DNA of 64,000 bases. Source: Actinomycetes bacterium (GTDB lineage Bacteria > Actinomycetota > Actinomycetes > S36-B12 > UBA5976). Both the position numbers and the translations under genes were made by a program. Within the stretch, counting starts at the first letter, position 1. The number at the start of each line of letters is the position of its first letter. Location: the NCBI GenBank assembly GCA_038145175.1, contig JAYQPE010000006.1, positions 2,346 to 66,345 on the forward strand. Reading direction: 5' to 3'. The notes below the pieces were generated by a model. The model was not told where the DNA came from. It made no database searches and saw only the letters and a list, made by a program, of their open reading frames with translations. This document shows positions 33,909 through 35,085 of the stretch, piece by piece.

Positions 33909-34481
33909 ATGATTGTTATATTTACCGCTTGGAATTATCAAGTAACACTTTTGGAAATTTTTGCCGTACTTGCATCCTTAATTGGTGTTTGGTTAGGTAC
34001 AACTGGAACTCGAATTACATGGCCTTGGTGGATTTTAAGTAGTTCTTTATATGGAATTCTATTTTTCAATTTTGAATTATATGCAAGTGCCATCTTGCAA
34101 TTTGTATTTATTGTTGCAGCAATTTGGGGTTGGTTTGGTTGGGGTAAAGATGGTGCAAAACCAAGCAAATTAATTATTAAAGAAAAATTAATTTGGTTTG
34201 CACTTTCTTTAACTTCTTGGCTAATACTTGCACCATTACTTGCTCAAATTGGAGCGGCTGCAACTTGGTTTGATTCCTTTATTTTAGTAGGAAGTGTAGT
34301 GGCACAAGTATTAATGGTGAGAGAAAAATATGAGGCATGGCCAATTTGGGTTGTTGTTAATGTGGTGGCAACATTTCATTATGCAAGACAAGAACTATGG
34401 TTTACCTCTCTTTTATATTTAGTATTTATTTTTATAGCTTTTGTTGGATGGAAAAAATGGTTAGAAAAAGTAAATATTTAA
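33909..34481 (+). CDS. PnuC-family vitamin transporter, probably thiamine-specific (PnuT-like)
   Basis: Trp-rich polytopic protein; DS, Q.LM and W..W...N motifs; downstream of the TPP-class riboswitch; ATG at 33909 follows GGAGGAG. Confidence 0.88.
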   Translation: MIVIFTAWNYQVTLLEIFAVLASLIGVWLGTTGTRITWPWWILSSSLYGILFFNFELYASAILQFVFIVAAIWGWFGWGKDGAKPSKLIIKEKLIWFALSLTSWLILAPLLAQIGAAATWFDSFILVGSVVAQVLMVREKYEAWPIWVVVNVVATFHYARQELWFTSLLYLVFIFIAFVGWKKWLEKVNI

Positions 34482-34482
34482 A

Positions 34483-35085
34483 ATGCAAATTCAACAATTA
34501 TCAAATCTAGTTGGATTTGTTAAAGCCTCTAAAAATTACTGTGGTGCAAATAAACTAATTTGTATTGATGGACCTGCAGGGTCTGGGAAAACAACTTTAG
34601 CAACAAATCTTCAAAAACTATTGGATAATTCTCACGTTATCCACATGGATGAAATTTATGAAGGATGGCAAAATGCATTGAATGAAAACTTAGTATTAAA
34701 TATAAATAATTGGATTATCTTTCCTATGAAAAATAATGAGCCTATTATCTACAATAAATTTGACTGGCATCTTAATTTGAGAAATGATTTAGTTATTATC
34801 AATGATTATAAATTTATAATTTTAGAAGGAGTAGGTTCAGCAAGTCTAGGGATTAGAGATAGATCTGCGTTAAATATCTGGATTGAGGGGCGCCAAGAAA
34901 TTCTATTAAAGCGAGTTTTGGATAGAGATGGAGATCAAATAAAAGAAGAAATGCAGCTTTGGCAAATAAAGGAACAAGAATATTTTTTAAAACACGACAC
35001 AAAAAAACATTGTAATATTTGGATAGATGGCAATTTTGAGCAAGAAATAGATACCGCATCACAAATCGTTTTGCTCAATCGGTAA
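34483..35085 (+). CDS. P-loop nucleoside/uridine-kinase-like protein
   Basis: [11 protein letters not shown]alker A, HMD..Y.GW, ILEGVG, R...RDG lid; 1 nt after the transporter gene. Confidence 0.8.

Follow-up and report, generated by a model that had tools for sequence, protein, structure and literature searches.

In the window analyzed here, a 64,000-nt stretch of contig JAYQPE010000006.1 (assembly GCA_038145175.1) from a small freshwater actinobacterium, we studied a module composed of a thiamine pyrophosphate (TPP)-type riboswitch, a PnuC-family transporter gene and a gene for a P-loop kinase. Positions are given within the window, and all listed features lie on the + strand. We infer the substrate, the product, the co-transcription and the regulatory mechanism from comparative genomics, which suggests that the kinase is probably a non-orthologous thiamine kinase trapping imported thiamine as thiamine monophosphate (TMP) for ThiL. 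The NF005115-like P-loop kinase of the window is hereafter called kinase 1, and the AAA_28 kinase of sister families, similar to the ribosylnicotinamide kinase (RNK) part of NadR, is called kinase 2.

In the proposed mechanism, the riboswitch would hide the ribosome-binding site of the first gene when the thiamine cofactor suffices. The transporter, PnuT, would let unphosphorylated thiamine diffuse into the cell, where kinase 1 would phosphorylate its hydroxyethyl group in an ATP-dependent manner to give TMP. The TMP could not exit via PnuT, and ThiL, encoded elsewhere, would turn it into TPP. Kinase 1 would in this way replace the unrelated ThiK and make a ThiN-type pyrophosphokinase unnecessary.

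Thiamine genes, transporter and kinase of the genome

Two bacterial routes from thiamine to TPP are described in passages of a preprint (bioRxiv 10.1101/2020.03.04.976639), one with ThiN/TPK in a single step and one with ThiK and ThiL in two steps. The genome under study (1.33 Mb in 40 contigs, 94% complete) encodes ThiL, with a score of 245 bits that is over the cut-off, and contains no match to ThiN/TPK (TIGR01378) or ThiK (TIGR02721). Models of ThiE, ThiD and ThiM reached only 20-25 bits in it, far below their cut-offs, and the best match to the ATP-binding cassette (ABC) thiamine-binding protein ThiB gave 41 bits vs. a cut-off of 93.4. The organism looks like a thiamine auxotroph that imports thiamine via PnuT, in agreement with an earlier note on this DNA, in which B1 auxotrophy had been considered likely. 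As ThiL is present and none of the known TMP sources was found, the conversion of thiamine to TMP is the single unexplained step. ThiL is kept, these sources are missing and a P-loop kinase takes the slot behind the transporter, all of which is read most simply as kinase 1 making TMP from thiamine. Full-text literature searches found no paper naming the family of kinase 1 or that of kinase 2 as a thiamine kinase, and the enzyme family proposed here for the thiamine to TMP step appears to be unassigned so far.

The transporter gene (33909-34481, stop codon TAA at 34479-34481) encodes a 190-aa protein that matches PF04973 with 137.8 bits (cut-off 27.3) and the solved PnuC structure 4qtn with an E-value of 4.3e-7. 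It is the only Pnu gene in the genome, and we read its product as the thiamine facilitator PnuT. A TTG codon at 33879, the start listed by the program, is less likely than the ATG at 33909, which lies 5 nt after the Shine-Dalgarno sequence GGGAGGAG (33896-33903) and is the conserved start in relatives. In acI genomes, pnuC-like genes with a THI element were interpreted as PnuT; in its passages on these genomes, the same paper reports nearly all enzymes of thiamine synthesis and salvage as missing and does not mention the kinase (Kang et al. 2017, PMC5301498). Purified PnuT of Shewanella is described, in the relevant part of its report, as a facilitator with no binding or transport of TMP or TPP (Jaehme 2018, PMC5749112); for uptake by such a protein, an enzyme that phosphorylates the vitamin in the cytoplasm is therefore necessary. 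That Pnu transporters work together with trapping kinases is already established in principle, and trapping of this kind does not depend on contact between the two proteins. For the colocalisation of Pnu and kinase genes, other authors cite Rodionov 2002 (JBC) and Jaehme & Slotboom 2015 (BBA). The locus agrees with such a module in having a PF04973 facilitator, a conserved adjacent and co-oriented kinase and a TPP-type leader.

For the comparisons within the sampled order, families are denoted f1, f4, f5, f7 and f10 and genera g1 and g20, with L001-type codes for loci and G041-type codes for genomes. A second Pnu subtype (L057, L058; G041, G053) scores higher on PF04973 (189-193 bits vs. about 138) and has neither a TPP-type leader nor an adjacent kinase of either family; it is probably a true nicotinamide riboside PnuC.

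Kinase 1 (200 aa; 34483-35085, ATG at 34483) is encoded by one copy in the genome. Its Pfam matches are to generic P-loop families only (AAA_18, 34.5 bits), and the best NCBIfam match is NF005115 (PRK06547, 'hypothetical protein'), with 110.2 bits vs. an equivalog cut-off of 173 over positions 14-167 of the 172-position profile. Kinase 1 and its relatives from f10 and Nanopelagicaceae all match this model below the cut-off (102-127 bits vs. 173), and NF005115 itself carries no function. Judged by these profile matches, kinase 1 is a member of a family related to NF005115 and not of the equivalog. The udk models TIGR00235 and NF004018 gave 31.9 bits (cut-off 220.3) and 35.9 bits (cut-off 180), AAA_28 (PF13521) gave 15.3 bits (cut-off 27), and models of ThiK, ThiN and ThiL were not among the Pfam and NCBIfam matches of kinase 1. 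The family comprises 1561 cluster representatives at E<=0.001 and 431 at E<=1e-10; databases label the relatives 'uridine kinase' or leave them unnamed, and matches in the ESM Atlas are only to 'uridine kinase' or unannotated actinobacterial clusters.

The AlphaFold model of kinase 1, obtained from an 80-sequence alignment (pLDDT 97.0, pTM 0.92), is compact, with a fold like that of nucleoside kinases and a pair of lid helices. The best Foldseek match was the uridine kinase 3asz (E 5.1e-10, TM 0.64), and the best PDB matches were uridine-cytidine kinases, phosphoribulokinases and pantothenate kinases, with TM of 0.60-0.68 and 12-21% identity. Common to kinase 1 and this superfamily (PF00485; 3asz, 1uj2, 9qkn, 1esn) are the fold, the P-loop, the Asp after strand 2, the Walker-B-like LEG and the lid arginines, whereas kinase 1 differs in falling below every curated cut-off and in the family-specific invariant tryptophans W62 and W95 of its HMDxxYxGW and DW motifs. 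The residues invariant in 80 relatives are D29, G30, G35 and K36 of the P-loop, D56, G61 and W62 of HMDxxYxGW, W95, G116 of LEGxG and R148 of the RDG lid. Such a residue pattern is that of small-molecule kinases that use an Asp as base. In uridine kinase and in nicotinamide riboside kinase 1 (NRK1), the Asp that follows strand 2 acts as the catalytic base, and in kinase 1 this role probably falls to D56 of the invariant HMD.

The earlier note had spoken of an orphan P-loop kinase, similar to uridine kinase and unlike ThiK, ThiN or ThiL. The resemblance and the dissimilarity are borne out by Pfam, NCBIfam and Foldseek, and the motifs it pointed to are all present (GPAGSGKT at residues 30-37, HMD at 54-56, EGVG at 115-118). 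The word 'orphan' does not hold for a protein near NF005115 with 1561 representatives.

Distribution and linkage of the two kinases

The phyletic pattern was determined in 151 genomes of the same order; as related genomes are not independent, the counts are to be read as patterns and not as statistics. Kinase 1 occurs alone in 41 genomes and with PnuC in 30, kinase 2 alone in 34 and with PnuC in 18 (one of them also with ThiE). ThiE alone was found in 7 genomes, and 19 have none of ThiE, PnuC, kinase 1 and kinase 2. Both kinases were detected together in 2 genomes of the 151 (2/127 in the tally of co-occurrence), with weak kinase 1 matches at E about 1e-9 to 1e-10. Not one of the 48 genomes with PnuC is free of both kinases, and a kinase lies directly 3′ of pnuC in 47 of these. 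ThiE is present in 8 genomes, 7 of which, from five families and including splits within f1 and f10, are without both kinases, while 124 of the 143 ThiE-negative genomes have one kinase. The co-occurrence analysis proposed in the earlier note thus gave an anti-correlation of both kinases with ThiE. ThiL was matched at E<=1e-20 in 146 of the 151 genomes and over the cut-off in 139; ThiN exceeded its cut-off in none. Five kinase-positive, PnuC-negative genomes were sampled, and each has one TPP riboswitch, located before a thiamine ABC binding protein gene (224-250 bits) or an energy-coupling factor (ECF)-type transporter gene, indicative of thiamine import in genomes of this kind also.

We observed the second kinase in the same position of otherwise similar loci. 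In seven loci of families f4, f5 and f7 (L050-L056), a TPP riboswitch and a transporter 52-55% identical to the PnuT of the window are followed directly by an AAA_28 protein of about 180-190 aa. The leaders of these loci score 29.4-65.2 bits on RF00059, three of them at or above the cut-off, with L054 and L055 at 65 bits. Kinase 2 exceeds the cut-off of PF13521 (68-104 bits vs. 27), and among named models it is most similar to the ribosylnicotinamide kinase part of NadR (48-51 bits). Kinases 1 and 2 have only 15 P-loop residues in common (E 0.045). In all 18 genomes with kinase 2 and PnuC, kinase 2 lies on the same strand within about 170 nt 3′ of pnuC; it is also present in 32 of 32 sampled f7 genomes, only 3 of which have a Pnu gene. 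In L054 and L055 the module is placed between carotenoid genes and a pknL-like gene, and on acI-like contigs kinase 1 likewise stands directly before a pknL-like gene. Together, these observations suggest kinase 2 as a second candidate thiamine kinase, a putative case of non-orthologous displacement in the same slot.

The order riboswitch, pnuT, kinase 1 is itself conserved. Among loci on genome contigs, pnuC lies directly 5′ of kinase 1 in 10 of 12; leuS is the next gene in 9 of these, and the tenth contig ends there. In the other two (L011 and L012, 36-37% identity) kinase 1 precedes a pknL-like gene, and both pnuC and the riboswitch are absent. In the order sample we examined the best 30 kinase 1 matches, 24 of them in family f1: pnuC adjoins kinase 1 in 23 of the 24 f1 places, and leuS follows in only 5 (L019-L023). 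By coordinates, the two genes are adjacent in 29 of 30 genomes with both. Nine metagenome loci have the same riboswitch-pnuT-kinase 1 order, and a pknL-like gene comes next in 8 of them. With Rfam, the leader was recognized in 16 of 18 scanned f1 loci (26.5-40.7 bits); L034 has no upstream sequence, and L035 was missed by Rfam. Our own leader model R1 finds the L035 leader (90.1 bits) and all 9 metagenome leaders, so that the aptamer is present in every complete pnuT-kinase 1 leader examined. The three-part order persists in at least three genomic settings, and the linkage of pnuT with kinase 1 has survived at least three rearrangements among the neighboring genes. This agrees with the neighborhood conservation on which the earlier note had made its proposal depend.

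In a tree of 68 kinases, a single clade (43 rows; support 95/88) holds the pnuT-linked ones, which account for 40 of its rows. L011, L012 and L045 fall inside this clade as secondary losses of the linkage, and members from f10 and from high-GC soil contigs fall outside. Four rows, in which the tblastn match ran through the natural stop, were left out of the tree. The in-frame stops of L025, L027, L040 and L073 had been considered as signs of pseudogenes, which we rejected, since the stops lie opposite query residues 181-199 and are natural gene ends.

In six high-GC f10 loci (L029, L033, L038, L039, L042 and L047) the kinase 1 relative stands alone and there is no riboswitch. In L029, L033 and L047, it is divergent from a gene for a sirtuin-type deacetylase about 10-50 nt away, with DUF3090/SCO1664-like genes on the other side. 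A 1618-nt contig from freshwater RNA (run X5, record 27) joins a tRNA-Ala-like segment (33717-33781) to a leuS-like one (35234-35310) with 134 other letters between them, and skips the 1452 nt that hold the riboswitch, pnuT and kinase 1. Its 7 and 10 mismatches in the two segments indicate that it comes from a relative. Some relatives seem to have no module at the tRNA-Ala/leuS site, as if it had moved as a cassette.

Leader and boundaries of the module

The leader at 33803-33916 matches RF00059 with 42.2 bits (E 1.9e-6), below the Rfam gathering score of 54.3, and is the sole TPP-type riboswitch match in the whole genome. RNAalifold on 31 aligned leaders gave 21 pairs, 14 of them with compensatory changes, and CUGAGA, ACGGGAG, GACCG and a GUAAU loop are invariant in all 31. 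The elements of the TPP architecture, P2/P3 with CUGAGA, P3a, and P5 with the GUAAU loop, are recognizable and supported by covariation. Despite the sub-cut-off Rfam score, the leader is a real structured RNA. Its 3′ end covers the ribosome-binding site and the start codon of the transporter gene, and in the Rfam alignment the bases of GGGAGGAG fall in the 3′ side of P1/P4. The Shine-Dalgarno sequence lies within the 3′ strand of the aptamer, a position suggestive of translational control.

The part of the aptamer beside P5 deviates from the consensus. In the junction region (33870-33903) the leader reads CCAGAUCGGGAGG, and other forms in f1 are CCAGACAGGGAG and CCGACUUGUGAAGG; the alignment of the 31 leaders shows a non-canonical junction in all of those from f1, and RNAalifold lengthens P5 to six pairs, leaving almost no junction. 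Leaders of f7 retain the consensus CCGGCG(A/U)AGGGAGG, and those of sister families reach 54.3-65.2 bits on RF00059. In crystal structures, the consensus CG beside P5 and a G on the opposite strand contact the pyrophosphate via Mg2+. With this side of the aptamer non-canonical, the ligand could be TPP bound differently, TMP or thiamine, and the f1 leader is a possible ligand-shifted variant of the TPP riboswitch. In L007 (3281-3431) there are 69 nt between tRNA-Ala and the start of pnuT; the 5′ half of the aptamer (P2/P3, CUGAGA) is apparently deleted and the 3′ half kept, which is either a natural loss of the riboswitch or an assembly artefact.

On its upstream side, the module is bounded by a gene for tRNA-Ala(GGC) at 33705-33778 (ARAGORN; Rfam tRNA 71.7 bits), which is outside the module. 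An extended -10-like box, TGTTACATT (TGn + TANNNT), was read from the sequence at 33788-33796, 6 nt before the first aptamer base, and the TGnTAnnTT box is kept in the 8 relatives that have a complete leader in the alignment; we regard it as the candidate promoter of the module. A generic sigma-70 scan did not return this box among its sites, and promoter-like sites over 33600-35300 numbered 9 vs. 7.2 +/- 2.7 expected. The two genes are separated by one base (34482), in accordance with the 1-nt spacing noted earlier. Small shares of the sampled words (0.04-0.07) were found in RNA runs, and the four runs aligned gave contigs over the tRNA and leuS and almost nothing over pnuT and kinase 1. Further upstream (32054-33658) lie nadD, rsfS and a histidine-phosphatase-family gene (PF00300, 172 bits), an order kept in the close relatives L003-L005, L007, L009 and L010.

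Downstream, ten bases lie between the end of kinase 1 and the GTG (35096) of leuS, which encodes a leucyl-tRNA synthetase (35096-37582, an 828-aa open reading frame). A TAAATT sequence (TANNNT, 35083-35088) overlaps the end of kinase 1, its first three bases being the kinase 1 stop codon, and is followed by TTACCTT, so that it precedes the leuS GTG by 7 nt as previously noted. No Shine-Dalgarno sequence is found upstream of this GTG. We saw the AATCGGTAA(A/G)TTTTAC(Y)(Y)(Y)GTG junction in 10 of 10 relatives, despite variation in the last kinase 1 codons, and in the same 10 of 10 TAA(A/G)TT has the identical 7-nt spacing to the leuS GTG. Actinobacteria often use leaderless mRNAs. The junction is consistent with a leaderless GTG start that has a TANNNT box 7 nt upstream, and TAAATT is a candidate -10 box of a leaderless leuS transcript. 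The conserved box and spacing support the separate leuS start and two-gene riboswitch unit proposed in the earlier note to the extent that both are plausible. As the terminator scan of 33600-35300 found none between the transporter, kinase 1 and leuS, read-through is also possible. Since leuS lies 3′ of kinase 1 only in loci of genus g1 and in close metagenome-assembled genomes, and elsewhere a gene for a pknL-like Ser/Thr kinase or other genes follow, leuS is a neighbor and not a member of the module.

Substrate of kinase 1 and known systems

Several observations weigh against thiamine as the substrate of kinase 1 and have to be set against the evidence given above. The fold and the catalytic motif of the protein are those of a nucleoside kinase. 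Most members of its family (among them those of f10, those on high-GC soil contigs, L011 and L012) adjoin no thiamine gene or riboswitch, and with all pnuT-linked kinases in one clade the linkage arose once, so that much of its 'conservation' is shared descent. The ligand of the leader is not certain: every f1 leader scores below the Rfam cut-off (26.5-42.2 bits vs. 54.3), and the J5/4 consensus 'CG' beside P5 is missing, the 3′ side of P5 in the leader reading CCAGA-UCGGGAGG in place of CCggCGuAGGGA. Lastly, most of the 19 genomes of the 151 without ThiE, PnuC and either kinase keep ThiL nonetheless, and a further route to TMP or TPP must then exist in the order and could exist here too. These genomes also have no ThiN-type enzyme of either kind and belong mostly to genus g20 of family f4, in which 11 of 13 genomes keep ThiL. 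An archaeal/ThiN-type TMP synthase (PF10120) was considered as the answer for them and rejected, as it was found in 1 of the 151 genomes.

We consider it unlikely that kinase 1 is a general pyrimidine nucleoside kinase of the uridine/cytidine type that merely shares an operon with pnuT. This would agree with uridine-cytidine kinases as the best structural matches (TM 0.60-0.68), with the name 'uridine kinase' given to relatives in the sources, with the many family members that stand alone and with the absence of a canonical Udk from the genome, in which the udk model matches only kinase 1, at 25.9 bits. Yet, kinase 1 is only 14-20% identical to the uridine kinases found by Foldseek, and the udk models give 26-36 bits vs. 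cut-offs of 180-220. A nucleoside kinase would, moreover, leave unexplained why, behind the same transporter and riboswitch, the unrelated kinase 2 can stand in the slot of kinase 1, why 0 of the 48 PnuC genomes are kinase-free and why 7 of the 8 ThiE genomes are without both kinases.

The anti-correlation of the kinases with ThiE, a thiamine gene, also speaks against the reading of the locus as a nicotinamide adenine dinucleotide (NAD)-salvage pair, in which the transporter would be a true PnuC and kinase 1 a nicotinamide riboside kinase. Here the leader argues for thiamine, as its fold is that of TPP riboswitches, with CUGAGA as an invariant pyrimidine-sensing part, and not that of an NAD-related element, and the L054 and L055 leaders pass the Rfam TPP cut-off. 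On the protein side, the transporter is over the cut-off of the nicotinamide riboside transporter model TIGR01528 (78.4 bits) and matches 4qtn, kinase 2 resembles the ribosylnicotinamide kinase domain of NadR, and the nearest solved sequence to kinase 1 is human NRK1 (E 0.0017), although this match spans only the 36 residues of the P-loop-to-Asp stretch. As the genome encodes NadA (322 bits) along with NadD and can make NAD de novo, salvage of nicotinamide riboside is not required, and we find such a pair improbable.

Just as improbable is an action of kinase 1 on another thiamine-related compound. This would be hydroxymethylpyrimidine (HMP) or the thiazole alcohol, or else a breakdown product or antivitamin analogue that PnuT carries. 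PnuT of Shewanella is described as carrying also pyrithiamine and oxythiamine in part of its report (PMC5749112), and the aptamer is canonical in its pyrimidine-sensing half but not in its pyrophosphate-sensing junction. Against this, phosphorylated HMP or thiazole would be useless without ThiE, which was found neither here nor in 143 of the 151 genomes, ThiD and ThiM were not found, and the retained ThiL needs TMP. The earlier note had left open thiamine or a thiamine precursor as the substrate of a non-orthologous kinase; gene content, linkage, kinase 2 in the same slot and the anti-correlation with ThiE support thiamine, and a precursor, useless in a genome with no ThiE, is disfavored. An ATPase that regulates or gates the transporter would suit the generic AAA/P-loop families among the strongest Pfam matches and the constant place beside the transporter within the clade, but is very improbable given the nucleoside-kinase-like fold, the invariant Asp of HMD, Glu of the Walker-B-like LEG and lid Arg of RxxxRDG as in small-molecule kinases, the family members in 41 genomes without any Pnu gene, and Pnu transporters working without ATPases according to the same partial account (PMC5749112).

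Returning to kinase 1 as the probable thiamine kinase, a wider proposal can be put forward tentatively, although we regard it as rather doubtful: both kinases would be unrecognised thiamine kinases of Actinomycetota, and the leader variant would sense TMP or thiamine, not TPP, making the locus a self-contained unit of uptake, trapping and feedback. The order includes very abundant freshwater plankton, which must phosphorylate imported thiamine with an enzyme so far unnamed. The locus offers a concrete candidate for this enzyme, and the sister lineages offer a second, unrelated one. If the assignment is true, it could serve to correct current predictions of B1 auxotrophy in which 'ThiL or ThiN' is taken to be enough. 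Many 'uridine kinase' and 'hypothetical protein' entries would then gain a function, and the riboswitch variant would be a candidate RNA with changed ligand specificity.

Among known systems, the TPP riboswitch-pnuT-tnr3 operons of Bacteroidetes, e.g., BT2396-BT2397 of B. thetaiotaomicron, are alike in having a riboswitch, a Pnu facilitator and a phosphorylating enzyme directly 3′; their tnr3 product, as characterized in part of the source, is a TPK/ThiN-type pyrophosphokinase that gives TPP in one step (PMC5613172), whereas the P-loop kinase of the window would be expected to give TMP and to depend on ThiL. PnuC with the RNK domain of NadR (AAA_28), a comparison to which eukaryotic NRK1 also belongs, is another case in which a Pnu facilitator is coupled to a P-loop kinase acting on a hydroxyl of a cationic vitamin; in contrast to it, the regulon here is that of thiamine and not of NAD, and kinase 1 does not belong to AAA_28. 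ThiK has an aminoglycoside-phosphotransferase-like (APH) fold. It is a different protein family from kinase 1, among whose matches TIGR02721 is absent. Nevertheless, ThiK (YcfN) of E. coli and Salmonella (EC 2.7.1.89), in the passages describing it (bioRxiv 10.1101/2020.03.04.976639), is alike in the reaction that we propose for kinase 1, the conversion of thiamine and ATP to TMP ahead of ThiL.

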